A stretch of 64,000 nt of DNA from Candidatus Hadarchaeota archaeon. GTDB taxonomy: Archaea; Hadarchaeota; Hadarchaeia; Hadarchaeales; JAGGTB01. The position numbers were made by a program, and so were the translations under genes. Numbering within the stretch: the first letter of the stretch is position 1; every line of letters starts with the position of its first letter. The notes under the pieces are model-generated. The model saw only the letters and a list, made by a program, of their open reading frames with translations, did not search any database and was not told where the DNA came from. Where the stretch lies: NCBI GenBank assembly GCA_964384105.1, contig CAYLJV010000003.1, positions 96,001 through 160,000 of the forward strand. Reading direction: 5' to 3'. This document shows, in pieces, positions 12,059 through 32,015 of this stretch.

Positions 12059-12129
12059 GACCATAAAAAAGGAAAATTATTGAAATTGAGGTAATTTTTA
12101 ACCTCGAATACATATTAATATTAAGTGAT

Positions 12130-14661
12130 ATGAGGGTTCTGTTTGTTGATGACGAGCCTGACATCTTAGAACAGGCAAAACTCTTTCTCGAGAAAGAGAA
12201 AGATGGACTGGATATTGACACTGTTATTTCTGCTGGGAAAGCTCTGGAATTGTTTGAGAAAAACGATTATGATTGTATTGTTTCGGATTACCAGATGCCT
12301 GAGATGGATGGGCTTAGCTTTTTAAAAATTTTAAGAAATGAAAGGCAAAATAGCATTCCATTCATAATGTTCACCGGTAAAGGTCGTGAAGAAGTTGCTA
12401 TAGAAGCCCTTAACTTGGGAGCAGATCGTTATCTACAGAAGGGTGGAGATCCACGGTCACAATATGATGTTTTGGCTCAGGCGATAATCCAAGAGATTGA
12501 ATACAGTCAAATGGAGGAAAGGGAAAACTTCTTCGAGATTTCAGCTACTCACGCCCCCGAAGCTATTTTCGTGTCCGATAAGAATGCAAATATTATTTAT
12601 GTTAACAAACAAGCATCTGAAAATCTAGGTTATTCTATCGAGGAATTGGAAGATATGAAAATTTTTGATCTTGATCCAAACTTTTCCTCGAAAAATTGGA
12701 ATCAACATTGGAAAAAGTCACGTAAAAAAGGAAAAACAAGGATTGAATCTGACCATATAAAAAAAGATGGAACAAAATTCTCTGTAGAGCTTCTGATTAA
12801 TCATATAGAACATATGGGTGAAGAATATCACTTCACATTTGCAAGGGATATCACCGATAGAAAGAAAATGGAGAAAGAGCTCTCTTTTGAGTCTGATTTG
12901 ATGGAGTCTCTTATGGATAATCTCCCTGATTTCGTATACTTCAAGGATGAGGATGCCCGTTACGTGGAAGTTAGTGAAAGTTACGCTGAAATGATTAATA
13001 TGGAAAAGGATGAGATTATCGGGAGGAAAGTGACGGATCTTTATTCTGAAGACGAGGGCAATAGGATGCATGAGGATGATTTGAGAGTGATAGAAGAGGG
13101 TGGAAAGATAGTCGACAAGGAAGACAAGATTACCATCCCTAATGGAGAAACCAGATGGATGTCCACTACAAAAATTCCAAGGTATGACGATGAAGGTAAT
13201 GTTATAGGAATGTTTGGTGTTTCTCGAGATATTACGGATAGAATGAGGTTAGAGAAGAGAATCGCTAATGAGAGAGACATGTTTGTGGAGGGGCCGGTTG
13301 TGGTCTTTAGCTGGTTAAACGAGTCGGGTTGGCCTATCGATTATGTTTCTCCTAACGTTGAGGAAGTCCTTGGTTACGAACCAGAGGACTTCACGGGTGG
13401 TGATCTTGTCTATACTGACGTCATAGCTGATGAGGACGTAGATAAAGTGATAGAAGAGAACCGGGAGGCTAGTGAGAGAGGGGAACCAAGGTTTGAACAT
13501 TCCCCTTATAGGATAGTCAAGAAGAACGGGGATGAGATCTGGGTTTACGATCTTACGACGATAGTTAGAAATGACAAAGGCGAGATAACTCGCTATCAGG
13601 GATATATTCTCGACATTACCCAACAGATGGAGAGAGAGGAGGAATCGAGATTATCCAAAGATATAATCACGAAGAGCCCTATTGTTGTGTTCTTGTGGAG
13701 GAATGAGGAGGGGTGGCCTGTGGAATTTGTTACTGAAGATGTTGTGGATATTTATGGCTACAGTCCTGAGGATTTTACTTTCGAAAATATGAAATTCATT
13801 GATACTATTCATCCTGATGATCGGTCAAGAGTCAGAGAGGAGGTTATTGAGAGCAGTAAGAAGGGACGAGAGAGAATCTCACATGAACCTTACCGTATAA
13901 TTACGAGGGAGGGAAATGTTAGATGGATCAAAGACGAAACTTACATCAAAAGGGACGAGAAAGGTAATATATTGAACTATCGGGGTATTCAAGAAGACAT
14001 CACTCAAAGGAAAAAGGCAGAGGAGAGGGAGGAATTTCTACACTCATTACTTAGACATGATGTTCGTAACAAGGCTCAAATTGTTCAGGGTTATTTGGAG
14101 CTTCTTAGGGATACTGACCTTTCAGAGGAGCAGAGTGAACTTATTGAGAAGGCCAGTAAAGCTTCAGAAGTAGGAGTAGATATTATTGAGAAGGTTAGAA
14201 CACTTCGAAAGGTAAGTGAAGAGAGGAGAATTAGTGAAGTTGGTATCAGAGTGATTCTTAAGAACGTGATCAGTGGGAAGGAATCACAGGCTTCGGAAAG
14301 GGATATAGAGATAGATTTTGAAATGGAGGGTTGCAAGGTTCTAGGAGGTCCCCTATTGGAGGAGCTATTCTCAAACTTAGTGGAAAATTCCATCAAGCAT
14401 GCTGACTGCGAGAAGATCCGAATATCCGGAAGAAAGACGAGTGAAGAGTGTATAATTACAGTCGAGGATGATGGTAAGGGAATTTCAGACGAAGATAAAA
14501 ACAAAATTTTCGAAAAAGGGTTTAAAAGCGGCAAAACTGGCGGTTCAGGACTTGGATTATTCCTTGTGAAGGAAATAGCTGAGTCTTACGGTGGTAGTGT
14601 TGAAGTCAATGACTCGGAACTAGGAGGCGCAAGATTCGACGTTCATTTGAAGAAAACCTAA
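12130..14661 (+). CDS. Hybrid sensor kinase REC-PAS x4-HisKA-HATPase
   Basis: Receiver DYQMP, PAS/PAC repeats, RHDVRN, GSGLGL. Confidence 0.92.
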   Translation: MRVLFVDDEPDILEQAKLFLEKEKDGLDIDTVISAGKALELFEKNDYDCIVSDYQMPEMDGLSFLKILRNERQNSIPFIMFTGKGREEVAIEALNLGADRYLQKGGDPRSQYDVLAQAIIQEIEYSQMEERENFFEISATHAPEAIFVSDKNANIIYVNKQASENLGYSIEELEDMKIFDLDPNFSSKNWNQHWKKSRKKGKTRIESDHIKKDGTKFSVELLINHIEHMGEEYHFTFARDITDRKKMEKELSFESDLMESLMDNLPDFVYFKDEDARYVEVSESYAEMINMEKDEIIGRKVTDLYSEDEGNRMHEDDLRVIEEGGKIVDKEDKITIPNGETRWMSTTKIPRYDDEGNVIGMFGVSRDITDRMRLEKRIANERDMFVEGPVVVFSWLNESGWPIDYVSPNVEEVLGYEPEDFTGGDLVYTDVIADEDVDKVIEENREASERGEPRFEHSPYRIVKKNGDEIWVYDLTTIVRNDKGEITRYQGYILDITQQMEREEESRLSKDIITKSPIVVFLWRNEEGWPVEFVTEDVVDIYGYSPEDFTFENMKFIDTIHPDDRSRVREEVIESSKKGRERISHEPYRIITREGNVRWIKDETYIKRDEKGNILNYRGIQEDITQRKKAEEREEFLHSLLRHDVRNKAQIVQGYLELLRDTDLSEEQSELIEKASKASEVGVDIIEKVRTLRKVSEERRISEVGIRVILKNVISGKESQASERDIEIDFEMEGCKVLGGPLLEELFSNLVENSIKHADCEKIRISGRKTSEECIITVEDDGKGISDEDKNKIFEKGFKSGKTGGSGLGLFLVKEIAESYGGSVEVNDSELGGARFDVHLKKT

Positions 14662-15690: not shown

Positions 15691-15936
15691 ATGTCAAAGA
15701 AAGCTACAACACTTTATCTTGATGAGGGAACAGTAAAGGAAGCTAAGAGATTAGGTTTTAACTTATCCAGGTCTTGTGAAATAGCGTTAGAACGGAGAAT
15801 ACTGGCTGAGAAACGCAGGTTATCATTCGATTATTCGGAAAACTCTAAAGAAGTCAAACCTAAAATTAATCCTACAGTGATTGCGGGGGTTGCCAAGTCA
15901 GGTCAACGGCGCAGCGTTGAGGGCGCTGTCCCATAG
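15691..15936 (+). CDS. CcdA/RHH-like protein, probable N-terminal fragment of a split integrase, reading into tRNA-Leu
   Basis: GFNLSRSCEIALERRI vs integrase GLNVSKSCELALERRI; stop codon lies inside the tRNA. Confidence 0.65.
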   Translation: MSKKATTLYLDEGTVKEAKRLGFNLSRSCEIALERRILAEKRRLSFDYSENSKEVKPKINPTVIAGVAKSGQRRSVEGAVP

Positions 15937-15970
15937 GGGTTCCGGGGTTCGAATCCCCGCCCCCGCACCA
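15883..15970 (+). tRNA. tRNA-Leu (GAG)
   Basis: GCGGGGG/CCCCCGC acceptor stem, CAGCG-TTGAGGG-CGCTG anticodon arm, long variable arm, GGTTCGAATCC, encoded CCA. Confidence 0.97.
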
Positions 15971-18251: not shown

Positions 18252-18785
18252 ATGGCTGATACTAAGTATAAGGTTAACAATGTCGTCATGACTGTTTCTT
18301 ACGAGAATACTAGATTTAACTTGGAGGAACTTACTTCTAATTTAGAAGGGGCAAGATATGAACCTGAAAGCTTCCCTGGAGTAATCTATAAAACGATCGA
18401 GCCTAAAGCCGCTTTTCTGATATTTTCTTCTGGAAAAGCGAACTGTGTAGGAGCGAATAGTGTCGAAGGAGGGAAGAAGGCAATAGAAAAGCTTACAGAT
18501 AAACTTCAAGATTTAGGGTTTGGTGTTGGTGAGCCAGTCATTGAAGTTCGGAATATGGTTGCTAAAGTGGATTTTCAGAGGAGTTTCGATCTGGAGGAAA
18601 TAGCAAGGAACTTTCCTCACGCAGAATATAATCCAGAAACATTTCCAGGACTCGCATTCAGATTGGAGGGGTATAAGAGTATGATATTTCTGCTTTTTAC
18701 ACAGGGCACAGGGGTCTGTGTCGGAGCTAAGAGTGAGGAAGAGATTGAGGAAGGTATAAGAAGAATAGAAGAGGCCATCGAATAA
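18252..18785 (+). CDS. tbp: TATA-binding protein, divergent paralog
   Basis: Two repeats: YEPESFPGVIY..LIFSSGK and YNPETFPGLAFR..LLFTQG. Confidence 0.93.
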   Translation: MADTKYKVNNVVMTVSYENTRFNLEELTSNLEGARYEPESFPGVIYKTIEPKAAFLIFSSGKANCVGANSVEGGKKAIEKLTDKLQDLGFGVGEPVIEVRNMVAKVDFQRSFDLEEIARNFPHAEYNPETFPGLAFRLEGYKSMIFLLFTQGTGVCVGAKSEEEIEEGIRRIEEAIE

Positions 18786-18822
18786 GAATCTTAAAAATTC
18801 TACAAGTTAGAAAAACATGAAA

Positions 18823-18853
18823 CAATCTATGGCATGGATCAATCCAAACCTAC
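18823..18853 (+). repeat. Hairpin element copy A (partial), core CAATCTATGGCATGG
   Basis: Core identical to copies at 21029-21094 and 26333-26399. Confidence 0.8.
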
Positions 18854-18882
18854 TAGACTAGTAGTTACCCACTTATGACTAT

Positions 18883-18996
18883 TTAGATTAACATTGCAGT
18901 AGCATCCAACTCTATCTGACAGTGAATACACCTGTCCCTGCCATCTTCAATAGTTTCCTTGCTAAGTTTTTTACCACACTCAACACATTTCTTCAT
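18883..18996 (-). CDS. 37-aa C4 zinc-finger microprotein 1 (MKKCVECGKKLSKETIEDGRDRCIHCQIELDATAMLI), not in ORF track
   Basis: AAGGAG SD, TATAAATAG upstream, paralog at 21117-21230 with conserved frame and synonymous changes. Confidence 0.85.
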   Translation of the reverse strand: MKKCVECGKKLSKETIEDGRDRCIHCQIELDATAMLI

Positions 18997-19344
18997 TATC
19001 AAAACTCTCCTTGATCGGCCCTAAGGTCTGAAGCACTATTTATAGGTCACTGTTTGCAGGGTTGAAAAGTGGAAATATGAGTAATGATGACTAATTCTTT
19101 TAATTCCGGAGGATTATTTGGGAATACTTAAAGGAGAGGGGAGAGTAGTTCATACGAAGTCAAGTTTATTGGACGTTACTAAACGTCCACCTTAAACCCG
19201 AGCTGGGCGGTCCCCCCCGACCGTTCAGCTTCCTCCCCCCTTCTCAAAAATTTATTTATATTCATAGACTTCTCTCGAGAGAAGGAACTAAATCAAATGT
19301 TCACAGATGATATCTCTACAGGGAAGAGAACGTATTGTTAACTT

Positions 19345-20298
19345 TCAATACACTTCTACCTCTTCATCGAGCTCTTCAGCTAGTTCTTTGTACCTGTTTC
19401 TAACCGTGACTTCGGTAACGTCTGCAACTTCTGCCACTTCTCTCTGGGTTCTCCTTTCACCACATTTCAGCGCGGCTATGTAGAGTGCTGCTGCAGCTGT
19501 TCCAGAAGGAGTTTTGCCCGATGTCAATTTTTCTTCTTGTGCCTTCCGAATTATCTTCATAGCTTCAACCCTGGCTTCATCTGATATATTCAGCTCGCTT
19601 CCGAACCTGGCTACATACCTGCTTGAGTCCGTGGGGGGAAGATCAATGTCTAATTTTCTTGCAATAAATCGATAGGTGCGTCCTATCTCTTTTTTATCCA
19701 CTCGGCTAACTTCAGTTACCTCTTCGAGAGTTCTGGGCATTTGAGCTTCCCGACAGGCTGCGTAGAGAGTAGCTGAGACCACTCCCTCTATCGAACGGCC
19801 TCTAATTAAATCAGCGTATAAAGCTTCCCGATATATTTTGGAAGTATTTTCTCTCACGTTTCTCGGTAAACCAAGCTGAGAGGCCATCCGATCCATCTCA
19901 GAAAGGGCGAAAGCTAGGTTACGGTCCTTGGCACCTGAAACCCTAATACGTTTTTGCCATTTTCTAAGACGGTACATTTTATAGCGTTTTCCTGGAGACA
20001 GGGTCTTTCCTCGACTGTCTCTATTGCTCCAATCGATTTGGGTTGAGAGCCCCTTATCGTGAATAGTGTACGTCATTGGAGAGCCTCCCCGACTGCGCTC
20101 TTCTCTTTGCTCTTGACTGAAAGACCTCCACTCAGGCCCCCTATCCTTAATATCTTCCTTTATAACAAGGCCGCAGCTCCTGCAAACAATCGTATTCTGT
20201 TGATAATCCCTGACAGTAACACTATTCCCACAATTAGGACAATGAAACTCTGAACTTCTGTTCTTCACTTTCTTAGAGGAATAAGTATCGGTCAACAA
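19345..20298 (-). CDS. tfb: Transcription initiation factor B paralog 1
   Basis: CPNC/CRSC ribbon, [26 protein letters not shown]. Confidence 0.96.
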
Positions 20299-20409
20299 TA
20301 TTCTCTATCCTGATCATTCCTGTTAGTTTTTCCTGAAAGAACAAATTTTCAATTGGTTCCAAAAGGATTGTCCGTTAATTCTGCACTATATTCCGGCTTC
20401 TTTAGCATA

Positions 20410-20487
20410 CTACTCCTCTAAGTTTCTCTCGATCCACCTTACCTTCTCATCAGCAGTCATACTACTCCAGTTATCTGGAACTTTCAT
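20410..20487 (-). CDS. Possible 25-aa peptide (MKVPDNWSSMTADEKVRWIERNLEE) upstream of tfb
   Basis: GAGGA SD and protein-like composition only. Confidence 0.4.
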   Translation of the reverse strand: MKVPDNWSSMTADEKVRWIERNLEE

Positions 20488-20581
20488 AATTCCTCATCTA
20501 TTCAGTTATCTCAAAGTAATCAACTATCTTGTTTATGGGTAGAGTGGTCACTGGAAGTGAACAGAAAATTGACAAATCATC

Positions 20582-20607
20582 TAAGCGGACTAAATGGTTT
20601 AATCAGG
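20582..20607 (+). repeat. 26-bp motif copy 1 (TAAGCGGAC-N5-RGKTTAATCAGG)
   Basis: Also at 20928-20953 and 25649-25674. Confidence 0.8.
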
Positions 20608-20927
20608 CCACCTCTTATCATAGGTGAGGTCTTGATTGAGTAATAATAAAAACACTTTACAAGGAGAACCAAGATAGAATTGTTTGTCCTGCCGGAAAGA
20701 TATCCAAAATATATCCTTAAGTCATCAAACCTCGGAAATTTTTTAAAGTGATGCCGAGGAATTTCAGTTCTCTTTGCTTTCAATTAGTTCAAGAAATCAC
20801 GAATCAACGGGGGATTGCCAGTCCCGGCAGGGCTTTTCCCTTTATATCAAGTATGTCTTTTTATGCAAAGTCGCAGGACTCTCAAGCTATTGTAATAATT
20901 TTGAATTAAATATCTCCTATATGAAGA

Positions 20928-20953
20928 TAAGCGGACAATTTAGGTTAATCAGG
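20928..20953 (+). repeat. 26-bp motif copy 2
   Basis: TAAGCGGACAATTTAGGTTAATCAGG. Confidence 0.8.
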
Positions 20954-21028
20954 CTAGCCAAGTAATTTGGTTATTGTCTGAAGAGGGGAGATTATAATGA
21001 AAAGAGTTAGACTACCAAGTAATTTCCC

Positions 21029-21094
21029 CATGGTAGAGCGTCGATACCGCTATACCCTCAATCTATGGCATGGTTGAGTCGAAACCCGCTAATA
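21029..21094 (+). repeat. Hairpin element copy B
   Basis: Near-identical to 26333-26399 apart from the first hairpin loop. Confidence 0.88.
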
Positions 21095-21116
21095 GTAGAG
21101 GCCCAATTGCGATTTT

Positions 21117-21230
21117 TTAAATTAACATCGCAGTAGAGTCCGACTCGGTCTGACAATTAAAACAACGGTCCCTGCCCTCTTCAATAGCTTCCTTACTCAA
21201 TTCTTTTCCACACTCTATGCACTTTTTCAT
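21117..21230 (-). CDS. 37-aa C4 zinc-finger microprotein 2 (MKKCIECGKELSKEAIEEGRDRCFNCQTESDSTAMLI), not in ORF track
   Basis: AAGGAGTGA SD, TATAAATAG upstream, paralog of 18883-18996. Confidence 0.85.
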   Translation of the reverse strand: MKKCIECGKELSKEAIEEGRDRCFNCQTESDSTAMLI

Positions 21231-21780
21231 TTTCAATTCACTCCTTGATCAGTCCCAGAGAAAGAAGTTCTATTTATAAATTATGAATATCTCTTTTCAA
21301 GTTATTTCAGTTATTTCTTCTATGAACTCTCCAGCAAGCTCGACTTTATTGCCAAAACTTCTTATTAACTGTTTGGATTTACTTTCAGAGAAAAAAGCTC
21401 CTTTTACTCGCAATACATACTTTAGTTACCAACCTCGTAAATTTTTATCCCAAAAAACCGGATTTTACTTGAATTAGCTTCCTAATTGAACGAAAAATCT
21501 GAAGGAATCAAACCCGGGTCTTTTACTTATAAATAAAACCCTTGAAGTCCCTTTTCTTTATAGATAATTGGGCTTACAGGGGATTTATCTCCGAATAAGA
21601 CAAGTTGTTTTACTATATAGATAGTTTTCTTCTGTTTTTATTCCTTAGAAAGGTAAAAAAGAAAGTAAAAGCATGAAGGTGGCCTTCACGAAATTCCGAG
21701 AGAAGTTGGAAAATCAAGATTGAAATCACGAACCGAAAAGCATTTAATTTCAAATTCTGAGTTCGGGAAGGTGAGTTTGA

Positions 21781-21997
21781 GGGGCCGGGATTGTTACCCT
21801 TTCGCGGGCAGGTTGAAAAGCAGCCGATCGGTAGCCGACCGAAGCAGAGCCTGCCGGCATCGCCCGACCCCTGTGCCCCATTCTCAGTAAAAACAAGGAG
21901 GTGAGAAACCCCGAAGGGACACCAAAACCGCCAGTGTTGAAAACTCGGTTCCTAAAGAGAAGAAGTTCACCGGCGGAATCGTAAAACACATGACAAT
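21781..21997 (+). ncRNA. Unrecognised structured ncRNA, copy 1
   Basis: GC-rich, multi-stem, covaries with copy 2; CGAAAAG-CATTTAAT promoter-like element at 21734. Confidence 0.75.
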
Positions 21998-22243
21998 TAA
22001 TGTTATTAAACGAGGAATTCTTTTTGGCTTACTCCCTCCCATATATAATTTAACAATATGTTAAAAATATTCCTATTTTCTGTAATTCTACCTTCACAAA
22101 ACTTTAGCATAAGTAAATAAAAAGAATAAGGAGAGGTCCCTTGGTTCTGAAGAAGGGTCAGGGAGTTCCTCCATTTTTTTACTTTCACCCAACTCAGACA
22201 ACCGCTTAACAGTACATAACCAAAGAGTTAAATCTATGATAAA

Positions 22244-22507
22244 TTGGGAAGGCCCATACCTACTTTCAGATATGTAATCGAGAAAGAGATAGAAAATTGG
22301 AAAGAGTTCAAGAGAGCTTTGAGTAGGAAAGACAAAGAGATTTTCAATAGGATCATGGAGTACTGTAGGAAACACATTCCAGCTTGTTCTCAGACCAACA
22401 ATCCAGAACCCTTTCGGCCTATGATTATTTCTATTATTCTAGAGCAACTAAAGAAATTGAATTTTCCTGAAGAAGCTATCTCGAAAATTCAAGAGTTGAT
22501 AGAATAG
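22244..22507 (+). CDS. Small helical protein of the family usually found beside PolB2 (arCOG07300-like)
   Basis: MGRPIPTFR..W..FKRAL..DKEIF..PF..MIISIILE pattern. Confidence 0.65.
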   Translation: MGRPIPTFRYVIEKEIENWKEFKRALSRKDKEIFNRIMEYCRKHIPACSQTNNPEPFRPMIISIILEQLKKLNFPEEAISKIQELIE

Positions 22508-22571
22508 AAAGAATAAATTCAAAAGGGCAGAAACTATTTTGGTTTTTTACTTCTGTTTTTCTTTAATTGAC

Positions 22572-23507
22572 TTAATATGTTTCCAATTCAATTTCGAGTT
22601 CTTTGGCCACATCCTTATACCTGTTCCTGACAGTGACCTCGGTCACCCCCGCCACCTCAGCAACAGATCTCTGGGTTACTCTCTCCCCACCTTTCAAGGC
22701 GGCTATGTAAAGACACGCAGCAGCCGTCCCACTGGGACTCTTGCCCGAAGTCAGTTTTTTCTCTTGGACTCTCTTAATCAAATACATAGCATTCGTTTGG
22801 ACTTCTCCAGAAATACCAAGCTCACTACCAAAACGAGTCACATAACTGGCCGGATCAGTCGGGGGAAGGTGGATATCTAACTTTCGTGTTAAAAACATGT
22901 AACTACTAGTGATCTTCTTCATCTTAACTCGGCTTACCTCTTCGATCTCCTCAAGAGTTCGAGGCATCTTTGCTTCACGACATGCTGCATAAAGTGTAGC
23001 TGATACGACACCTTCGATTGATCTACCACGAATCAAGCCCTTTTCAACAGCCTCTCTGTAAATTTTTGACGCGATCTCCTGCGTACTTCTCGGCAGACCC
23101 AGCTGAGATGTCATCCTACTCATCTCACCAAGTGCAATGATCAAATTTCTATCACCTGAACTAGCGATCCTGCTTCGATTATGCCACTTTCTCAGTCGGT
23201 ACATCTGCTGGGACTTTTTTGGAGACAGATTCTTACCCTTCGCATCTCTGTTCTTCCAGTCAATATTAGTGGAAAGTCCTTTATCGTGAATAGTGCCCGT
23301 TGAAGGAGGCCCGGATCTCTTTTTATTCTGATATTCTTTGGCACTGAAAGCTCGCCATTCTGGACCCCTGTCCTTAATACTCTCTTCTATGATCCTACCG
23401 CAATCAGCACATATTCTAACGTTTTGCTGATAATCCATAATCCTGGAGGTACTACCACAGTTCGGACATTTAGCGGATGCTTTCTCAGAACCCTTAATAG
23501 AACTCAC
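22572..23507 (-). CDS. tfb: Transcription initiation factor B paralog 2
   Basis: CPNC/CADC ribbon, [26 protein letters not shown]. Confidence 0.96.
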   Translation of the reverse strand: MSSIKGSEKASAKCPNCGSTSRIMDYQQNVRICADCGRIIEESIKDRGPEWRAFSAKEYQNKKRSGPPSTGTIHDKGLSTNIDWKNRDAKGKNLSPKKSQQMYRLRKWHNRSRIASSGDRNLIIALGEMSRMTSQLGLPRSTQEIASKIYREAVEKGLIRGRSIEGVVSATLYAACREAKMPRTLEEIEEVSRVKMKKITSSYMFLTRKLDIHLPPTDPASYVTRFGSELGISGEVQTNAMYLIKRVQEKKLTSGKSPSGTAAACLYIAALKGGERVTQRSVAEVAGVTEVTVRNRYKDVAKELEIELETY

Positions 23508-24026
23508 ATTATTACTCTTCTTCCCATCTACTAGTACTTTCCTCCGATTTTTCAGAATACGCTAAGGAGGAACTTAAGTAGTTCAAAAATGATTTTGAAA
23601 AGCCAGCCAAATATAAACTCTAACTCTACACCAAAAACACTTAAAAACTCGAAAACATCAAAAATACACTCAATCGATAAATAAATACCTAAAAAGTCTT
23701 AGAATTTTGTTCCAGACCATAAATATTCTTAAATAAGGTGACAGAACACCATATTTATTCTCATAGGGAATCCAGTTAACTCTTTCATAAAAGTTAAAAA
23801 TTAACTAATTGTTTTTCAATCAAAATATCAATTTTATCCATATAAAATTCATACCTATATCATCTTAGATGATATGGTAAAATCGGAATATTGATAGTTT
23901 TTAGTTTTTAGAAGTTTTTACTGAAATGAGAAATGAATAGTTTCTAAAGAGAAAGTAGATAAGAATTGAAAATGGTGGATAAGGTTTTAATTGTATCCAA
24001 GATTAGGAGGATTTGGAGGGGTTACA

Positions 24027-24242
24027 ATGAGCAAAACTAATCAATCAGTCACAGAAGAAGATGATGAGATTTTCAGCAATGAAAGATTTGCAGAAACAAC
24101 AATACAGAGGATAAGCAAGTATGTAAAAAATTACGGTGAGAAGGACAAGGAGGATATTTACAAGCTACTGAAACGGTGTTATGTGGCTCTGTGCCGATTG
24201 AGGAATTGGGAGCCACAAGATCTCGACAAATTCAGGGATTAA
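24027..24242 (+). CDS. Hypothetical protein
   Basis: ATG after GGAGGGG SD. Confidence 0.55.
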   Translation: MSKTNQSVTEEDDEIFSNERFAETTIQRISKYVKNYGEKDKEDIYKLLKRCYVALCRLRNWEPQDLDKFRD

Positions 24243-24346
24243 TGCATTATTTGGATGGTTATCTCCGATTTAACTTGAAAAATCCTAAATAAAAAATCGA
24301 AAAGTATTTTAATTCCAAAACAGTGATTTTGATAGATTGAAAATAA

Positions 24347-24563
24347 GGGGCCGGGATTGTTACCCTTTCGCGGGCAGGTTGTTGCCTATACCAGTTTAGG
24401 TCGGTCGCCAACCAACCACAGAGCCTACCGGAACGCCCGGCCCCAGAGCCCCCTTAAACCGAGCCAATGGGGAGGTGAGAAACTCCATAGGGGGACTCAT
24501 TCCGCCGGTGTTTGTAAATTCTGTCCTCAAGAGAAGAAAAGATACCGGCGGGAGCTTGATAAT
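24347..24563 (+). ncRNA. Unrecognised structured ncRNA, copy 2
   Basis: First 35 nt identical to copy 1; compensatory changes; CGAAAAG-TATTTTAAT at 24298. Confidence 0.75.
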
Positions 24564-24817
24564 GGAAATGTTAACTAAAGCATCTGAACTAGAAAGAAGC
24601 CTTTTCTTTAATCCACCCCCCCAATTGATTCATCGGAATTAAACTCCGTATGCAAAGACCCTTTGCCATCTGAATGTGTGCATTTAAATTTTACGAATTG
24701 TGTCGAAAGTTTTAGGGCAAGGATTTTGTTTGAAACTGTGGAGCTTATGGTTCACTTAAGGTAAATAATGAGGAGAGTTCAACAAATTTTCAGTTAAAAA
24801 CTCCTATTTTTTAGTTT

Positions 24818-25075
24818 CTAGCTACGAGGAAGCAAATTCCTCATCTGATGGTATTTTTCGAGAAATTTTGAGCCCTTTTCAGTTAAATCCCACTGTAAAG
24901 GCGAGTGGGCCCTTACTTCAACGAGACCATTTTTCCGTAGCTGTTCGAGATACTCATTGCATCTCTTAAAGTTCAAGTTTGCTTTATAAACAATATGGGT
25001 TTTTCGAGATTTATGTTTAACAGCTGTTAGAAGATCTGCATAAACATCGAATCTTGTTCTTCGGTCCCTACCCAT
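24818..25075 (-). CDS. Winged-helix transcription regulator (COG3432/HTH_45-like)
   Basis: RRTRFDVYADLL..KTHIVYKANLNF..LTEKG. Confidence 0.85.
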   Translation of the reverse strand: MGRDRRTRFDVYADLLTAVKHKSRKTHIVYKANLNFKRCNEYLEQLRKNGLVEVRAHSPLQWDLTEKGSKFLEKYHQMRNLLPRS

Positions 25076-25648
25076 AATACCCTAAGTTGTTCTTACCAAA
25101 CCACCTTACTTAAGGTTAGCTTACTACTAGTACAGAACATTATTCTTAGGAAGGGTAAAAAGCGAACTTTCTGTATTTTTTAACATAATGTTTGAAGAAA
25201 ATATTTGTTAGTGTCGGATTGAAAGTTTTAGGATAGAAAATAAAAAGAATAAAGGGGTATACGCCTTTTCCCTTTCTCTCTTAAACAATATGATTAGAAA
25301 AAATATAGTGGGTTTGTTTAATAATTATTTATATGGAATAATTTTGTGAAAAAAATAGAACTCTCTAAAACTAAACAGAGAGAAAATTGGAATAGGATCA
25401 GTAATGTGATAAAAATTAGTGCAGTTAGTTTTTTGCAACTGTCCCTACCATTTTCTATTTAATTTTCGTACAATTTACCTACTATTTTGAAGGCTCTGGA
25501 TTATCATACCATACAATAATCGTTGTAGTTGTTCCTTATTTCGGATTTTCACTACTTGCTTTAAAAAAACTGGAGACCACTAAAAAGCCTCACAGAAAAA
25601 TAGGCTATACTAAAGAGATCTGAAGGTTCCCAAATGAATTGGATCATG

Positions 25649-25674
25649 TAAGCGGACTGAATGGGTTAATCAGG
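25649..25674 (+). repeat. 26-bp motif copy 3
   Basis: TAAGCGGACTGAATGGGTTAATCAGG. Confidence 0.8.
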
Positions 25675-25784
25675 TTAGGTTATTTGAAACGGTAATTTAG
25701 TTATTAATAGATTTTCTTCGAGTTTGGCTCATAGAACCCTATAAGTTTTGAAACAAGACTTGTTTATTCTTATGTGAGTCCCTT

Positions 25785-26321
25785 ATGAAAAAGGATAGAA
25801 AATCAGATAGGAAGAAAAAGGTTGCTATCGGGATAATCATAATAATTTTAGTAGTGATAGTCGCATACCTATATTTCTCTGGAGGTTCTACCGAAGCAGA
25901 AGAGGTCAACAGTGTTGACATTGAAGTAGAAGGTGATACCAATCTTGGTTTCTCTGGAGAATACAGGATGAGGGCCAGAGGTTTGCAAAAAGAGAAACCA
26001 GACGTGAGGTTGGATATAACTTCTGGAAAACCCGCTATGACTATCTGGATCTACAATAGCGAGGAGGGCGAACTATATGGGTATAATTCTGATGACGACT
26101 ATTGGGTTAACCTTTCGGAAATGCCCGACTTAGAGTATCTACAAGAATTCGCAAAATCAATGAGAGACTACGTGAGTTCAGGAGAGGGTGACATGACAGT
26201 AGAATATCAAGGGTCGAAATATGAATTGAGAATTAATGAAGTAAACCCATCACTCCCCGACAGTCTATTCACTCCACCAGAAGATGCAAAAATGGAGAAC
26301 TTAGTTCCAAAGAATCTGTAA
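25785..26321 (+). CDS. Membrane-anchored extracellular protein
   Basis: Basic N-terminus plus TM helix; C-terminal LPDSLFTPP. Confidence 0.75.
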   Translation: MKKDRKSDRKKKVAIGIIIIILVVIVAYLYFSGGSTEAEEVNSVDIEVEGDTNLGFSGEYRMRARGLQKEKPDVRLDITSGKPAMTIWIYNSEEGELYGYNSDDDYWVNLSEMPDLEYLQEFAKSMRDYVSSGEGDMTVEYQGSKYELRINEVNPSLPDSLFTPPEDAKMENLVPKNL

Positions 26322-26332
26322 ATTCAAACTTA

Positions 26333-26399
26333 CATGATAGAGCGTATCTGACGCTATACCCTCAATCTATGGCATGGTTGAGGCCAAACCCGATTAATA
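26333..26399 (+). repeat. Hairpin element copy C, about 10 bp from integrase stop
   Basis: Matches 21029-21094. Confidence 0.88.
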
Positions 26400-26409
26400 C
26401 TTACCTTAA

Positions 26410-27438
26410 TCAGAGAATTTCAATTCCAACTTTATCATATATCTTCTTCAAGTGCTTTGGTGTTTGTCCATTGTAGTTTCTCAAGTCAATACTTCCGAAG
26501 TGCCCAAGTAACATTTCCTTAATGTCAGTTGATCCGCCTTTCCTATCCCATTCTTGTGAGAAGAACTTCCTGCAGTGCTTCAGTTTTAGGTCTGGTTTTT
26601 CATCCATCTTGTTTGTAATGAGATAGATAGCCTTGTGAATGAATGGTCTTTCAGGAAACATTCCCTTCAACTTCTTCAGTCTCTTCTGTGCCTTTTTGTT
26701 GAAAACTACAATTCTTTCTCCTTTGGTCTTGGTCTCCTCCGCTGGAAGATTGATAATCCTATCATCGAGATTAATATCCTCCCAGTCTAACCTGTAAACC
26801 TCCCAGGGCCTCATCCCAGTAACAGCAGAAAGGTGAACTGCAGTCTGTGCTCTGTAAACGTATTTGTGTTCAGTGCCCTCGTGATCTAATTCATCCATAA
26901 GATTGAGAATATCTTCCTTCTCCACTATCTTAGGCCTGTGTTTACTCAAATTGGGTTTCTTGATCTTCTCAATCCAGTAAACGTTCATCTCCTTGAAGAA
27001 CTGCTTGATTGCTTGAATGTCATCGGAGAGAGTTCTGTTAGAAACCTCATCTCTTCTCTCGTTAAGATAATCAGTCACATCATTGAGACTGCAGGACCAA
27101 TTCACGTGTTCTCCCAGTTTTTCTAATTTTCCCTTAACTGCATTTATTCTTAGAGAACTTCTACCAGCCGCTTTTAGTCTGTTACAAAACTCTTCTATAT
27201 CTTTCTTCGAAAATGAGACCTTGTGATTATTGCCTTTGTTTCCATTACCATTCGGATAACTTCCATTTTGTGGTTTGAAGTTGTGATTGTTTGCTACATT
27301 GGAGTCTATTTCCTCTAGAGTTATGATTCTTCTCTCCAGAGCTAATTCACAGGACTTAGATACATTAAGCCCCTCTTCCTCGGCCCTCTCAACTAAACTT
27401 TTGGATATTTGAACTGTAATTTTATCTTCTATATTCAT
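26410..27438 (-). CDS. Tyrosine recombinase/integrase with N-terminal CcdA-like RHH domain
   Basis: TGMR, TKTK, KHCR, LGH, RNY catalytic set; ATG 27438 likely start. Confidence 0.92.
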   Translation of the reverse strand: MNIEDKITVQISKSLVERAEEEGLNVSKSCELALERRIITLEEIDSNVANNHNFKPQNGSYPNGNGNKGNNHKVSFSKKDIEEFCNRLKAAGRSSLRINAVKGKLEKLGEHVNWSCSLNDVTDYLNERRDEVSNRTLSDDIQAIKQFFKEMNVYWIEKIKKPNLSKHRPKIVEKEDILNLMDELDHEGTEHKYVYRAQTAVHLSAVTGMRPWEVYRLDWEDINLDDRIINLPAEETKTKGERIVVFNKKAQKRLKKLKGMFPERPFIHKAIYLITNKMDEKPDLKLKHCRKFFSQEWDRKGGSTDIKEMLLGHFGSIDLRNYNGQTPKHLKKIYDKVGIEIL

Positions 27439-27440
27439 TT

Positions 27441-27495
27441 GATTCAGGGTGCAGTACACTCTAACTCGTACATAAAGGTCGCTCTGAGGAGGATC
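27441..27495 (+). repeat. 55-bp repeat, copy 2 (probably contains the integrase promoter on the minus strand)
   Basis: Matches 12004-12058; TTTATGTA on minus strand about 30 nt before ATG 27438. Confidence 0.85.
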
Positions 27496-27570
27496 AAGTT
27501 TAAAAAAGGAGTTTAAAAGTGAAATCACGTGTTTTTTTAGCTTATTACTTATATAACATTAACAATAGAT

Positions 27571-30500
27571 ATGAAAGTTCTTCTCGTTGATGATGAGCCT
27601 GATATTTTAGAACAGGCTAAAATCTTTCTCGAAAAAGAGGAGGAAAGGTTGAGTGTTGAAACTGTTGCTTCAGCTAGGGAAGCTCTGAATTTATTGGAGA
27701 AAAACGAATATGATGGTATAGTATCGGATTACCAGATGCCTGAGATGGATGGGCTTAGCGTTTTAAAAATTTTAAGAAAGGAAAGGCAAAATGGCATTCC
27801 ATTCATAGTGTTCACCGGTAAAGGTCGTGAGGATGTGGCTATGAAGGCCTTGAATCTTGGGGCCGATCGTTACTTGCAGAAGGGCGGTGATCCTAGGTCT
27901 CAGTATGGTGTATTGGCACAAGCTATAGTCCAAGAGATCGAGCATTGGAAGCATAAAAGGGAATTAAGGAGTATTGGTTGGCTTCTCACAAAGGGGGTAG
28001 AAGAAACAACTTACGAACCACCTTATGACGATCTAACAGAGCTGAATACTGAAAGAACGATATTGGACTCCATAGGAAAAGACCTGCTTCAAGATATTGT
28101 GGATCATTTTATGAGCTTACTTGACACTTCAAGTGCAGTCTACGAGAAAAATGGTGATTATGCATTAGGAATCTTCGCTTCCAAATGGTGTAAATTCATG
28201 GATAAAAAATCCAGAGATCTCTGCAACAAAGATGATAATCAAGAAGCATTAGATTGTGGAAAATGGATCTGTCACGAATCCTGTTGGAATGCTGCAAAAA
28301 TCTCAATGGAAAAGGGTAAACCTGTCGACGTTGAATGCAGCGGAGGAATAAACCTGTACGCAGTTCCAATCCGAGCGGATGGAGAAATTATTGGCTCCAT
28401 AAATTTCGGTTATGGAGAACCGCCAAAAGATCCAGACAAGTTAGAAGAGCTCTCAGAAAAATACCAGGTAAGTATTGAGGAACTCCGTAAAAATGCGAGT
28501 TCATACGAACCTCGTCCTCATTTCATTATTGAAGTTGCCAAGAACAGGTTACGAACTTCAGCCAGACTGATAGGGGAAATCGTGAGAAGAAAAAGGTCTG
28601 AAAGAGAATTAGCAAAGGAAAGAGATAGAGTTCAAAAGTATCTGGAAACCGCTGAAGTAATGATAGTAGCGATAGGCAAGGACCACAAAGTTATGGAGAT
28701 AAACAGAAGAGGTTGTGAAATACTCGGTTATGATAAGAAAGAAATTATTGGAAAAGACTGGTTCGAGAATTTCATTCCTGAAAGAACGAGAAAAAGCTTG
28801 CTTAAGGAGATTCTAGAGCCGTTGATGGAAGGAAATATTGACAAAGCCCAAAGGCATGAAAATCCTGTACTGACCAAAGACGAAGAAGAGAGAATTTTGT
28901 CCTGGAGAAATACCGTGCTAACTGACGATACTGGAGAAATCATCGGAACTCTAAGCTCAGGAATGGACATTACCGAACAAAAAGAAATGGAGAACGAGCT
29001 GCGTGAGAGTGAGGAGAAGTACAGGCGACTTTTCGAGACCGCTCAAGATGGAATGCTTATACTGAACGCCGACTCCGGAGAGATAATGGATGCTAATCCT
29101 TACATTCAAGAACTTTTGAGTTATTCGAAGGAGGAGCTTGTGGGAAAGGAGCTCTGGCAGATAGGAACCTTTAGGGATATTGTTGAGAACAAGGAGAAGT
29201 TTGAGGAGTTGGTGGATGAGGATTATATTCGTTACGAAGATATGCCTCTGGAAACGAAAGGCGAAGAGGAGGCTTCGGTCGAGTTCGTCAGCAATACGTA
29301 CGAGGCCGGTGGAGAAAAAGTAGTGCAGTGTAACATCAGAGATATTACGGAGAGAAAGAAGGCTGAAGAGGAGTACAGGAATCTTTTCGAAACTATGGCT
29401 CAGGGCGTGGTTTATCAGGATTCTGAAGGAAACATTATTTCGGCCAACCCTGCTGCTGAAAGGATGTTGGGGTTGACGGTTGATCAGATGAAGGGGCGGA
29501 CTTCTAGACATCCTGAGTGGAAGGCAATTAGGGAGGATGGGAGTCCTTTTCCTGGAGAGGAACATCCTGCCATGGTTGCTCTACGAACGGGAGAGGAAGT
29601 GAGAGATGTCGTTATGGGTGTTTACCATCCTGAAAAAGAAGACCATGTCTGGATCAATATAAATGCATTACCTCGGTTTCGGGAAGGTGAGGAAGAACCA
29701 TACCAGGTGTATACTACGTTCGAGGACATCACTGAGCGGAAGAGAGCGGAGGATAAACTCCGTGAGAGAGTCAAAGAATTAAGCCTGTTTTACAATTTTT
29801 CGAAGCTTGTTGAAGAGTTGGGGAATTCTCTGGAGAATATACTTCGGGGATTAGTGGATTTGATTTCTCCTGCGTTGCAGTATCCAGAGATAACCTGTGC
29901 CAGATTAGTTTTGGATGATGAGGAGTTTAAAACAGACAATTATGAGGAATCCAAGTGGAAACTGAAAAGCAATATTCTTGTGGAAGAGGAGAACAGGGGT
30001 TTTCTCGAGGTTGATTATTTAGAAGAAAAACCTGAACTGGACATAGGTTCTTTCCTAGAAGAAGAAAGAGATCTCTTAGAGGCTATCACAGAACGATTGG
30101 GCAAGATAATAGGCCGACTTGAATTAGAAGAAAAAGTCCGAGAGAGTGAGGAAAAATTCAGGAGTTTGTTCGAGTCTTCCCAGGACGCGGTTATGGTTCT
30201 TAAACCGCCCAAATGGGAGTTTACCTCTGCCAACCCGGCTACCGTGGAAATGTTTAGGGTGGAGGACGAGTCCGATTTTTGCTCGAGACCGCCAAGGGCG
30301 TATGCCCCTGAAAAACAACCGGACGGTCAGTCGTCCAAGGTAAAAGCGAAAAAGATGATCGACAAAGCGATGAGCGAAGGTGAGGTTTTCTTTGAATGGA
30401 CACATAAACGGTTAGATGGTGGGGAATTCCCTGCCACGGTTTTACTAAGTCGAGTGGAGGTCGGAGAGGAGAGTTTTTTGCAAGCTACAGTGCGAGACAT

Positions 30501-31521
30501 CACCGAACGAAAGGAAGCTGAGGAGAGACTTAAGGAAAGTGAGGAAAAGTTTCGAAGTTATGTGGAAAATGCGCCGAATGGAGTATTTGTCGTTGATAAG
30601 GATGGAAACTACCTTGAAGTTAACAAAACTGCTTGTGAGGTGACAGGATATTCTGAAGAAGAACTGCTAGAAATGAATATATCAGATCTAGTTACCTCTG
30701 AAGCTCGCGACAAAGCTATAGAAACTTTTGAAGAGCTTCTTGAAACAGGAAAAATGAGAACGGAACTCCCCTACCTCAGGAAAGATGAAGGCAAAGGATA
30801 CTGGAGTATAAATGCTGTAAAGATCTCGGATGATCGCTATCTTGGTTTTGTCGAGGATATCACGGAGCGAAAAGAAGCGGGGGAGAGGGAGAAGTTCCTC
30901 CACTCACTGTTGAGGCATGACGTTCGAAACAAGGCTCAGATCGTGCAGGGATATCACGAACTGTTGTTGGACTGTGATATGCCCGAAGAGGCGGAGGACT
31001 ACGTGGAGAAGGCTAGTAAGGCAGTTCGGGACAGCATAGATCTGATCGAAAAGGTTAGGACGTTGAGGGAAGTTGGTGAAAAGGAAGAGTTGGGGGAGGT
31101 TAGCATTGGATCGATCCTGGATAAAGTGATTAGTGAAAGTGAGTCTCAAGCTGATGAAAAAGGAATAAAAATAGAATCGGGGAGTTTGGACTGCAAAGTT
31201 CAGGGTGGGCCCCTCTTGGAGGAACTTTTCTCAAACCTTGTGGAAAATTCAATAGAACATGCCGGTTGTAGAAAAATCCTGATTTTGGGAGAAGAGACCA
31301 ATGAGAAGTTTATAGTAACAGTTGAGGACGACGGTAAGGGAATTCCGGAGAATAAAAGAGACAGAATATTCGAAAAAGGTTACAAAGCAGGGGAAACCAG
31401 CGGGTCCGGTTTGGGGCTCTATCTGGTCAAGGAAATAGCTGAGAGTTACGGTGGCTCAGTTGAAGTCAAGGACTCCGAATTAGGTGGAGTAAGATTTGAT
31501 GTCAGTCTCGAAAAAGCTTAG
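27571..31521 (+). CDS. Large hybrid sensor kinase REC-PocR-multi-PAS-HisKA-HATPase
   Basis: Receiver, Cys-rich PocR-like segment (VECSGGINLYAVPI), about 5 PAS domains, RHDVRN. Confidence 0.92.
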   Translation: MKVLLVDDEPDILEQAKIFLEKEEERLSVETVASAREALNLLEKNEYDGIVSDYQMPEMDGLSVLKILRKERQNGIPFIVFTGKGREDVAMKALNLGADRYLQKGGDPRSQYGVLAQAIVQEIEHWKHKRELRSIGWLLTKGVEETTYEPPYDDLTELNTERTILDSIGKDLLQDIVDHFMSLLDTSSAVYEKNGDYALGIFASKWCKFMDKKSRDLCNKDDNQEALDCGKWICHESCWNAAKISMEKGKPVDVECSGGINLYAVPIRADGEIIGSINFGYGEPPKDPDKLEELSEKYQVSIEELRKNASSYEPRPHFIIEVAKNRLRTSARLIGEIVRRKRSERELAKERDRVQKYLETAEVMIVAIGKDHKVMEINRRGCEILGYDKKEIIGKDWFENFIPERTRKSLLKEILEPLMEGNIDKAQRHENPVLTKDEEERILSWRNTVLTDDTGEIIGTLSSGMDITEQKEMENELRESEEKYRRLFETAQDGMLILNADSGEIMDANPYIQELLSYSKEELVGKELWQIGTFRDIVENKEKFEELVDEDYIRYEDMPLETKGEEEASVEFVSNTYEAGGEKVVQCNIRDITERKKAEEEYRNLFETMAQGVVYQDSEGNIISANPAAERMLGLTVDQMKGRTSRHPEWKAIREDGSPFPGEEHPAMVALRTGEEVRDVVMGVYHPEKEDHVWININALPRFREGEEEPYQVYTTFEDITERKRAEDKLRERVKELSLFYNFSKLVEELGNSLENILRGLVDLISPALQYPEITCARLVLDDEEFKTDNYEESKWKLKSNILVEEENRGFLEVDYLEEKPELDIGSFLEEERDLLEAITERLGKIIGRLELEEKVRESEEKFRSLFESSQDAVMVLKPPKWEFTSANPATVEMFRVEDESDFCSRPPRAYAPEKQPDGQSSKVKAKKMIDKAMSEGEVFFEWTHKRLDGGEFPATVLLSRVEVGEESFLQATVRDITERKEAEERLKESEEKFRSYVENAPNGVFVVDKDGNYLEVNKTACEVTGYSEEELLEMNISDLVTSEARDKAIETFEELLETGKMRTELPYLRKDEGKGYWSINAVKISDDRYLGFVEDITERKEAGEREKFLHSLLRHDVRNKAQIVQGYHELLLDCDMPEEAEDYVEKASKAVRDSIDLIEKVRTLREVGEKEELGEVSIGSILDKVISESESQADEKGIKIESGSLDCKVQGGPLLEELFSNLVENSIEHAGCRKILILGEETNEKFIVTVEDDGKGIPENKRDRIFEKGYKAGETSGSGLGLYLVKEIAESYGGSVEVKDSELGGVRFDVSLEKA

Positions 31522-31526: not shown

Positions 31527-32015
31527 ATGAGTGATAAGATGGAGAAATTCAAAAAAAGGGAATTTAGACAATACCGTGAATTGATAGACGGTATGAACGA
31601 CGCCGTATTTATCCACGATCTAAATTGTAATTTCCTTTCAGTGAACCAAGTGGCTGTCGACCGGCTTGGCTACTCGGAAGAAGAACTACTTTCCATGGGG
31701 TTAGATGATATAGATGGTTCGAAAGAAGGAAAAAAGGTCAAAGATAGAATCCAAGAAATAGAAAAAAAAGAAACGATAGTTTTTGAATCCATTCATGTTA
31801 CGAAAAGTGGGGAAAAAATCCCCGTAGAGATAAGTTCAAGTCCGATAAATTATCGAGGCGAACCGGCAGTCTTCAGCGTGGTTAAAGATATTAAGGAAAG
31901 GAAAAGAGTGGAGGAGGCCTTGCGCGATATTACTTCTGCCATGGTTTCCCAAATAGGTTCCGGGGTTCGAATCCCCGCCCCCGCATCACAACCCCAATTA
32001 GCTAAAATAATCTAA
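31527..32015 (+). CDS. PAS-domain protein, apparently truncated at att site
   Basis: Single PAS; last codons run through the tRNA-derived repeat. Confidence 0.7.
   Translation: MSDKMEKFKKREFRQYRELIDGMNDAVFIHDLNCNFLSVNQVAVDRLGYSEEELLSMGLDDIDGSKEGKKVKDRIQEIEKKETIVFESIHVTKSGEKIPVEISSSPINYRGEPAVFSVVKDIKERKRVEEALRDITSAMVSQIGSGVRIPAPASQPQLAKII
31956..31985 (+). repeat. att repeat 1: tRNA-Leu 3' end
   Basis: GGTTCCGGGGTTCGAATCCCCGCCCCCGCA identical to tRNA 3' end. Confidence 0.93.

Follow-up and report, generated by a model that had tools for sequence, protein, structure and literature searches.

The 64,000-nucleotide stretch of DNA analysed here, referred to as the window, corresponds to C3:96001-160000 of the 1.62-Mb, 12-contig genome of an uncultured archaeon (labelled G000; GC content ~40%, completeness estimated at 90%). 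Between a tRNA-Leu(GAG) gene, which begins at 15883, and the outer of two tRNA-derived direct repeats, which ends at 34137, the window carries an island of 18.2 kb, whose core (18252-27438) encodes an accessory TATA-binding protein (TBP) paralog, TBP2, two full-length paralogs of transcription factor B (TFB1 and TFB2) and a tyrosine integrase. A preliminary description of this core had listed an intact TBP, two full-length TFBs, a winged helix-turn-helix (wHTH) protein, two zinc-finger (ZnF) microproteins and an integrase, and all of them were recovered at or close to the places where it had put them. For comparison, the other species genomes of the genus were used (G001-G006; seven genus genomes together with G000), which belong to a class of 65 genomes; contigs are numbered with the prefix C. 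The proteins of G000 are acidic, and the nearest named homologs of the island TBP and integrase are found in single-cell genomes of 'candidate division MSBL1', which NCBI files under Methanobacteriota incertae sedis. Judged by these nearest named homologs, the host appears to be an uncultured, salt-loving, MSBL1-like archaeon and not a haloarchaeon; the haloarchaeal frame of the preliminary description is an analogy and does not describe the host.

TBP2 (18252-18785, plus strand, 177 aa) matched both repeats of PF00352 (E 2.9e-46) and was aligned end to end (residues 5-176, E 6.9e-36) with the TBP of M. jannaschii (2z8u). The FPG and L(I/L)F motifs, which we take to hold the DNA-inserting phenylalanines, are kept in both repeats (SFPGV/LIF in repeat 1, TFPGL/LLF in repeat 2). 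Furthermore, one residue is inserted in repeat 2, and a loop of this repeat is altered, reading TQGTG instead of GSGK. A second, core TBP of G000 is encoded at C2:71872-72402 and, together with seven further full-length TFB loci elsewhere, unveils that the island genes are not the sole tbp/tfb copies of the genome. TBP2 itself is present in two of the seven genus genomes (G000 and G002), and on the level of the class 29 of the 65 genomes gave repeat matches worth more than one TBP gene. In a tree of 35 rows TBP2 and the second TBP of G002 formed a clade (100/99) on long branches (0.57 and 0.43). With database proteins included, the TBP2 clade comprised 22 rows (100/100), many of them from MSBL1 single-cell genomes, which contribute as many as three members each. 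TBP homologs of 59-72% identity were found in ten named single-cell genomes, nine of which fall within the TBP2 clade. In G002 the second TBP gene and a TFB gene are convergent and 38 nt apart, in a neighbourhood unlike that of G000. A contig search with TBP2 returned a Thaumarchaeota TBP (40%) as sole match, which is uninformative for synteny. A further TBP locus was seen in G005 (C2:1-20000), which encodes a divergent TBP (32%) and a short TFB (40%) as well as a row made up of a RadA-like gene, a small protein with 31% identity to the window open reading frame (ORF) 22244-22507, and PolB. This contig was dropped as a comparison locus because its GC content is 55% versus 38-42% in five other G005 loci; it is probably mis-binned.

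TFB1 (19345-20298, 317 aa) and TFB2 (22572-23507, 311 aa) are both encoded on the minus strand. Each of them comprises PF08271, with the Cys pairs of the zinc ribbon visible in the alignment, and two PF00382 stretches; the E values of TFB1 and TFB2 were 6.6e-15 and 4.7e-14 for the zinc ribbon and 1.8e-47 and 1.7e-44 for the cyclin repeats, respectively. In total G000 has nine full-length TFB loci, two in the island and seven elsewhere (among the latter the core TFB, C1:306808-307767), plus more divergent TFB-like genes. An 11-residue stretch of the C-terminal helix-turn-helix is identical in seven of eight TFBs of G000, both island copies included, and what differs between the paralogs is the N-terminal tail, the part following the zinc ribbon and the surfaces of the cyclin repeats. 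Since the C-terminal helix, which presumably reads the TFB recognition element (BRE), is unchanged and the divergence falls into these other parts, a new BRE appears unlikely, and any specificity would more likely come from TBP2, from post-recruitment steps or from partners.

A second copy of TFB2 was detected on contig C12 of G000 (1584 nt), which matches window positions 22499-23891 with 97.7% nucleotide and 98.7% amino acid identity and has other flanks. One end of C12 overlaps the start of C5, the other one overlaps a 55-nt node common to the starts of C3, C4 and C8, and the read depth doubles over the 1.39-kb duplicate stretch. Here one TFB gene alone was duplicated very recently. The two copies differ by 1.1% at coding sites versus 5.5% in the upstream 384 nt, and the four residue changes all lie within the first 23 residues. 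With complete frames and domains, kept motifs and the conserved coding sequence of TFB2, the genes of TBP2, TFB1 and TFB2 look functional.

The integrase (26410-27438, minus strand) carries an N-terminal ribbon-helix-helix (RHH)-like domain and matched PF00589 (E 1.3e-11) and phrog_1 'integrase' (E 1e-24). Position 27438 is the likely ATG start, the mechanical ORF extending to 27528. Residues R210, H288, R290, H313 and Y322 are invariant across eight homologs, and we take these R, H-x-R, H and Y columns to be the catalytic residues of tyrosine recombinases. At E<=1e-20 the integrase was found in one of the 65 class genomes, namely G000 itself, and the best match among the other 64 has 27% identity. 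Homologs with 71-77% identity include two from MSBL1 single-cell genomes, and a homolog of 60% occurs in Methanonatronarchaeum; the named single-cell genomes with close homologs number four. One distant homolog shares the CcdA-like N-terminal domain. An ORF of 81 aa with a CcdA/RHH-like N-terminus (15691-15936, plus strand; PF07362, E 4.5e-7) overlaps the tRNA-Leu gene in its 5' half and shares 45% identity with the N-terminus of the integrase over 33 aa (tblastn); it could be the remnant of an older integrase gene. An integrase of the gene-partitioning SSV type, in which the attachment site is part of the int gene and integration splits this gene, was ruled out because the gene is whole and without a tRNA-Leu-like stretch inside.

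The tRNA-Leu(GAG) gene (15883-15970, plus strand; ARAGORN) is the sole GAG isoacceptor of the genome and contains the left repeat, the exact core of which is located at 15938-15967. This 30-nt stretch of the T-arm and acceptor end has three exact occurrences on the same strand (matched in 0 of 100 shuffles), the other two being the inner repeat (31956-31985, plus strand; 88% over 48 nt) and the outer repeat (34108-34137, plus strand; 79% over 48 nt), in agreement with the earlier view of a tRNA-Leu-bounded region. The 5' side of the inner repeat is truncated and fused to the frame of a broken PAS-kinase gene, a 162-aa PAS fragment of a kinase-like gene (31527-32015, plus strand) that runs into the repeat at 31956. 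The outer repeat keeps the junction 'GCTCTCG', followed by a degenerate anticodon-loop stretch. The same GCTCTCG junction also precedes tRNA-Leu fragments in G001:C1, G002:C48 and G006:C53. Downstream of the orthologous tRNA-Leu(GAG) gene, G001 has one fragment at a distance of 0.7 kb, G006 has two fragments, which enclose 0.9 kb and a 2.4-kb kinase gene, and G004 is without a fragment in 11.8 kb; in G002 (C6) the contig ends 1.3 kb past the tRNA. Because fragments and the common junction recur in congeners, the tRNA-Leu 3' segment is a recurrent recombination or duplication junction in the genus, and since the repeat junction recurs at the same tRNA gene with other cargo in relatives, tRNA-Leu(GAG) is, to judge from these alignments, an integration hot spot with differing cargo in related genomes. 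The region is non-syntenic in the relatives; genus synteny is poor overall, and differing gene positions alone are weak evidence. Pyruvate kinase was dropped as a marker of the right flank, since it is present in two of the seven genus genomes only and cannot define an empty site.

Arrays of tRNA-Leu fragments were observed in G002:C48 and also in G006:C53. The 11 kb of G002:C48:1-11100 hold six 3' fragments of tRNA-Leu, all on the same strand and interspersed with four genes of REC-PAS histidine kinases. A kinase stop codon lies ~40 nt ahead of four of the six fragments, which also have the preceding ~80 nt in common. In G000 the orthologous kinase genes are dispersed over C5, C7 and C1 and lack fragments. 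The locus resembles either a cassette array or a unit that was duplicated serially.

In the island, a hybrid kinase of 1316 aa with the architecture REC-PocR-PASx4-HATPase (27571-31521, plus strand; Pfam) is divergent from the integrase gene and corresponds to the adjacent sensor kinase noted earlier. A second kinase gene at 12130-14661 and G000:C10 are paralogous to it, the upstream region included. On the DNA level the promoter regions and receiver domains of the three kinase genes at 11997-12408, 27434-27849 and G000:C10:991-2151 are 81-86% identical, and the similarity upstream of the kinase (27434 on) begins a few bases from the integrase start codon. Kinases are found beside TFB paralogs in four other genus genomes as well, since TFB genes of the clade that is sister to TFB2 adjoin REC-PAS kinases at G001:C11, G002:C43, G006:C35 and G004:C77. 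At G001:C11 the TFB and the kinase fill a variable slot directly after tRNA-Leu(CAG); both flanks of this slot have their syntenic counterpart in G000 at C1:195-213 kb, but there the slot is taken by transporter and ArsR-like genes. At G002:C43 the pair is 1.6 kb away from a tRNA-Leu fragment. Furthermore, an ORF of 804 aa at G000 C10:974-3388 fuses REC, PocR and PAS to a TFB zinc ribbon and first cyclin repeat, with 62% identity to the N-terminus of the kinase 27571-31521 and 61% identity of the TFB part to TFB2. A search of 442-1407-aa proteins with this TFB part gave 104 matches, all of them TFBs that were extended, fused to TBP or carried an intein; none had a receiver or PAS domain. The fusion was therefore rejected as a conserved Rosetta-stone link; it might have arisen by recent recombination, represent a pseudogene or reflect a chimeric assembly.

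The microproteins ZnF1 (18883-18996, minus strand) and ZnF2 (21117-21230, minus strand) are zinc-ribbon paralogs of 37 aa with the pattern CxxC..CxxC and 76% mutual identity; ZnF1 matched no Pfam family. Together with its flanks, the ZnF2 gene (222 nt, 21059-21278) shows 75% similarity to the surroundings of ZnF1, and a 60-nt piece past the 3' end of ZnF2 (21029-21088) has an 87% match downstream of the integrase gene (26333-26392). A ZnF homolog of 81% identity was found in one of five congeners searched (G002:C48), besides two weak matches of 45-46%. Integrase, TBP2, ZnF genes and the R1 element described below are absent from most congeners and in this respect appear to be accessory.

The two structured RNAs proposed for the core were confirmed as structured elements and represent two copies of one GC-rich family of ~210 nt, termed R1 (copy A, 21777-21983; copy B, 24343-24558, found by repeat comparison). 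A third structured element, unlike R1, is located between TFB1 and ZnF1 at 19114-19241. It folds better on the plus strand (z -4.7 versus -2.2) and recurs with 79% over 128 nt at G002:C48:13822-13947 with the ZnF homolog alongside. The intergenic DNA of the two species is otherwise unalignable, and the element adjoins a ZnF gene in both of them; the strand antisense to the ZnF/TFB1 genes gave z values of -4.7 (G000) and -4.4 (G002) versus shuffles. R1 has seven copies in G000 (the other five at C4:51007-51206, C1:397611-397827, C1:135629-135835, C4:84895-85137 and C1:153786-154027), one weak match in G002 adjoining an integrase, and none in the 63 other class genomes. The R1 alignment contains four pairs with compensatory change; the minus strand folds better (z -3.4 versus -0.7), but G-U and A-C counts in it are about even. 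Four of the seven copies lie 0.1-1.8 kb from tRNA-Pro, tRNA-Ser or tRNA-Thr genes. Those tRNAs have no repeated fragment within 25 kb, and R1 copies were discarded as candidate ends of elements at other tRNAs; no protein neighbour common to the R1 copies was found. Neither R1 nor the third element corresponds to a described Rfam family. The Rfam scan of 10000-36000 at E<=1, which did not list the tRNA itself, gave as sole match a sub-threshold C/D-box at 29912-29966 inside the kinase gene. In addition, a regex scan of the 1.6-Mb genome for a motif of 26-27 nt (TAAGCGGAC..TTAATCAGG) gave three matches, all of them in the island and on the plus strand (20581-20607, 20928-20953 and 25648-25674, the last one 111 nt upstream of the next ORF). 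This island-only motif might serve the island as an operator or a promoter element.

The wHTH protein (24818-25075, minus strand, 85 aa) belongs to HTH_45 (PF14947, E 1.6e-21) and matched the viral family phrog_35756 (E 4.6e-11); a paralog of 74% identity is encoded at C1:623720. A protein of 87 aa (22244-22507, plus strand) matched over its full length phrog_30126 (E 2.8e-5) and phrog_26583 (E 1.6e-4), both viral families to which no function is assigned. An ORF of 71 aa (24027-24242, plus strand) has no homolog in the genome or the loci compared and no PHROG match; for its 83-aa version, which starts at 23991, all Pfam matches were below the curated cut-offs. A protein of 178 aa with an N-terminal hydrophobic segment (25785-26321, plus strand) has a weak homolog beside a TFB2 paralog on C8. 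Between the two tRNA-Leu repeats, a ParE-type toxin (33435-33728, minus strand; PF05016, E 2e-5) and a 67-aa putative antitoxin, assigned by its overlapping upstream position only (33725-33928, minus strand), form a mini-insert of 2.1 kb. A second RelE/ParE-like pair was seen at 37785-38259.

Pfam was scanned with 15 ORFs of window 14.7-33.7 kb and PHROGs with 10 ORFs; one Pfam round also took in the kinases 12130-14661 and 27571-31521 and the G000:C10 ORF. In accordance with the preliminary description, no capsid, replication or conjugation family was found among the 15 Pfam-scanned and 10 PHROG-scanned ORFs, other small ORFs remaining, and among the scanned ORFs there were also no packaging or partition genes. 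Queries of IMG/VR with single proteins (integrase, TBP2 and TFB2), which detect close relatives only, gave no relatives, and a metagenome search with the integrase alignment returned one fragment of 31 residues. Mobility was checked in the contigs of four metagenome runs from one study, one of which may be the source of the genome; no RNA run was listed among those that contain the stretch. Two joints that occurred there were set aside. The joint 19403>22721 has a 22-nt side and connects paralogous TFB positions, and the joint 21237>19021 was seen in one run at a depth of 2.6 and joins the ZnF copies; both were regarded as paralog artefacts or minor variants.

On balance, we lean towards reading the region as a composite island that was built by repeated site-specific integration at a genus-wide tRNA-Leu hot spot and that carries regulatory cargo with a presumed role in alternative initiation. 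This cargo would consist of TBP2, two TFBs, two ZnF proteins, the wHTH protein, the hybrid kinase, the motif and three RNA-like elements. The integrase, or relatives of it acting in trans, would recombine at the tRNA-Leu stretch from the anticodon loop to the 3' end, and through this proposed recombination the island would gain, lose and reshuffle modules among related genomes. The TBP and TFB genes presumably arrived as cargo. TBP2, for which binding to TATA DNA and to TFB is predicted, may act with the TFBs as an alternative initiation pair; in analogy to the Halobacterium pairs, TBP2 together with TFB1 or TFB2 would recruit the host RNA polymerase to a subset of promoters. Adjacency alone suggests that the kinase, the wHTH protein, the ZnF proteins or the RNAs control TBP2 and the TFBs. 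The anatomy of the locus, its repeats, the patchy distribution and the phylogeny are observed directly, and the island may be read as one that shuffles regulatory paralogs within the lineage.

A number of observations weigh against this composite island and many of them would equally fit a plainer account, which we consider possible, albeit less probable: an ordinary chromosomal cluster of paralogs. In this view the TFB, TBP and REC-PAS kinase genes of the lineage multiplied through local duplication and rearrangement, the toxin-antitoxin pair, the integrase and the tRNA-Leu fragments are what is left of unrelated small insertions that came to lie around them by chance, and the TBP and TFB genes never were cargo. 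In the 35-row tree the TBP2 clade nests inside the TBP clade of the genus (100/100). Because the TBP trees place the TBP2 clade inside genus and MSBL1 rows, TBP2 is a lineage-specific, fast-evolving family of accessory paralogs and no import, its clade being specific to MSBL1-like archaea. The nearest relative of TFB1 is a paralog of the same genome (G000:C6, 76%), and in the TFB tree of 39 rows TFB2 falls into a clade of four copies from G000 only (100/100), which is sister (87/77) to a clade with the G002 TFB that adjoins TBP2 of G002. The idea of an imported TBP/TFB kit thus had to be given up, the trees indicating in-lineage paralogs. Full-length TFB genes number 3-8 per genome in the genus (at least 56% identity to TFB1), and TFB2 was duplicated alone as a 1.39-kb segment. 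The pairing of TFB and kinase therefore seems to need no mobile element, since the same pairing is a common chromosomal neighbourhood in four other genus genomes. The base composition of the island is ordinary: its GC content of 0.38-0.39 is like that of the flanks, and by tetranucleotide distance the segment 17501-27500 ranks at the 78th percentile among 307 windows of the genome. The integrase gene is 4.5 kb away from the nearest repeat and not at the island ends. The four genomes with integrase homologs and the ten with TBP homologs do not overlap, a weak point given that these genomes are incomplete, and no tRNA fragment was found within the 10 kb examined near the TBP2-TFB pair of G002. 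Neither a clean empty site with both flanks conserved, among the genus genomes, nor a second copy of the island, in G000 or the related genomes searched, was detected. In the contigs of the four runs, from which rare forms drop out, there was no joint across 15976/31956/34137 and no circular or excised form, and the island was present in all four at flank-like depth. With no second copy, empty site or excision joint found in the genomes and contigs searched, movement of the 9-kb core as a unit is unsupported. Moreover, the fragments ~40 nt behind the kinases of G002:C48 could be a co-duplicated 3' flank and not a boundary. A mere paralog cluster, however, fits less well with the outer repeat at 34108, which follows no kinase and keeps the common junction, with the intact integrase inside the region, whose family is otherwise missing from the class, with the patchy distribution of TBP2, ZnF and R1, and with the variation of the cargo at the same tRNA gene between genomes. 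Of the mobile island as first proposed, the island itself and the accessory status were retained, as was the intact integrase; the reading as a foreign, self-contained, transferable kit was not.

It seems improbable that the region is an active self-transferring element, such as an integrative plasmid, a provirus or an integrative and conjugative element (ICE), with initiation factors of its own for itself or a new host. In favour of it, the integrase is whole and keeps the catalytic columns, the region is enclosed by direct repeats, the three copies of the island-only motif could be the element's own promoters or operators, and the thaumarchaeal ICEs described all encode TFIIB homologs (PMC6563490). 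Against such an element speak the lack of replication, capsid, packaging and conjugation families among the ORFs tested, of close relatives of the integrase, TBP2 and TFB2 in IMG/VR, of an excision joint or depth excess in the contigs of the four runs, and of a second island copy anywhere searched, as well as the inner repeat, which is truncated and fused to the broken PAS-kinase frame. Decay of the TBP and TFB genes to duplicates without present function, to which the long branches of TBP2 (0.57, 0.43) and the low coding density with long intergenic stretches around these genes might point, is very unlikely: the three genes have complete frames and retain every domain, many genomes keep the TBP2 clade, and the coding sequence of TFB2 is five times better conserved than the upstream region in comparison with its recent copy. 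More speculative than the composite island, and in our view rather doubtful, is the possibility that the tRNA-Leu fragments are recombination sites of an integron-like cassette system, whose modules are captured and reshuffled in trans at tRNA-Leu genes by RHH-tyrosine integrases. Kinase, TFB, TBP2 or toxin-antitoxin modules would then each end in a tRNA-Leu 3' segment of ~58 nt with the conserved junction, and G002:C48 with its six fragments, ~40 nt past a stop codon each, and four kinase genes would be a cassette array.

Promoter choice in archaea is a matter of TBP and TFB, and multiplied factors, as in haloarchaea, act somewhat like alternative sigma factors. The latter are carried on bacterial islands and phages. 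The composite island resembles them as a promoter-selectivity factor on accessory DNA; it differs in the protein families and the polymerase system, and its factors are paralogs of host genes. The comparison with a sigma-factor cassette made in the preliminary description is reasonable as an analogy, from which we infer a similar role. Serial direct repeats, varied cargo and one integrase gene also recall bacterial cis-mobilizable elements, in which integrase-less att-flanked elements accrete in tandem at tRNA genes, and the cassette arrays of integrons. Unlike in integrons, the repeats of the island are derived from a tRNA and are not attC-type hairpins, and recombination in the island is presumed.

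Among archaea, Halobacterium NRC-1 carries four tbp genes on pNRC100 and tbpF, tfbC and tfbE on pNRC200, and TbpD and TfbA co-regulate genes, TBP and TFB being proposed to pair as alternative promoter-recognition complexes (PMC2121645). The TFB expansion of haloarchaea is ancient and the TBP expansion patchier (PMC4230888). As in the island, the extra TBP and TFB genes of Halobacterium reside on accessory DNA of a halophilic archaeon; there they are located on megaplasmids, whereas the island is chromosomal, linked to a tRNA and equipped with a tyrosine integrase, and has an MSBL1-like host and a TBP clade of its own. Like the island, the thaumarchaeal ICEs are integrated, often at tRNA genes, and have a tyrosine integrase and a TFB/TFIIB homolog; they encode the conjugation genes VirB4/VirD4 and couple TFIIB to ParB, and no TBP is reported in the parts of the source seen (PMC6563490). 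In contrast, the island has a TBP and two full-length TFBs, and conjugation or partition genes were not found in the scanned ORFs. The principle is thus already known, since plasmid-borne TBP/TFB and ICE-borne TFB are described (PMC2121645, PMC6563490). What sets the locus apart is that one TBP and two TFBs occur together in an accretion island of the chromosome, linked to a tRNA and equipped with an RHH-tyrosine integrase, that the host lineage is MSBL1-like, and that the kinase modules around it terminate in the same repeat of tRNA origin. No description of a TBP/TFB expansion in MSBL1 was found among the matches listed in the literature searches (15 of 1,025 in one of them).

A second, unrelated brine lineage, the MSBL1-like one, has expanded TBP and TFB independently and evolved its own fast-evolving clade of accessory TBPs, and some of its TBP and TFB genes sit in variable tRNA-attached DNA together with an integrase and sensor kinases. 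TBP2, the two TFBs and the core pair provide concrete proteins for the question of how far TBP and TFB diverge on one RNA polymerase. If the cassette reading were true, brine archaea would share a pool of signal-sensing and promoter-selecting parts. Should the island really pass modules from genome to genome, the mobile gene pool of this lineage would include regulatory capacity itself.

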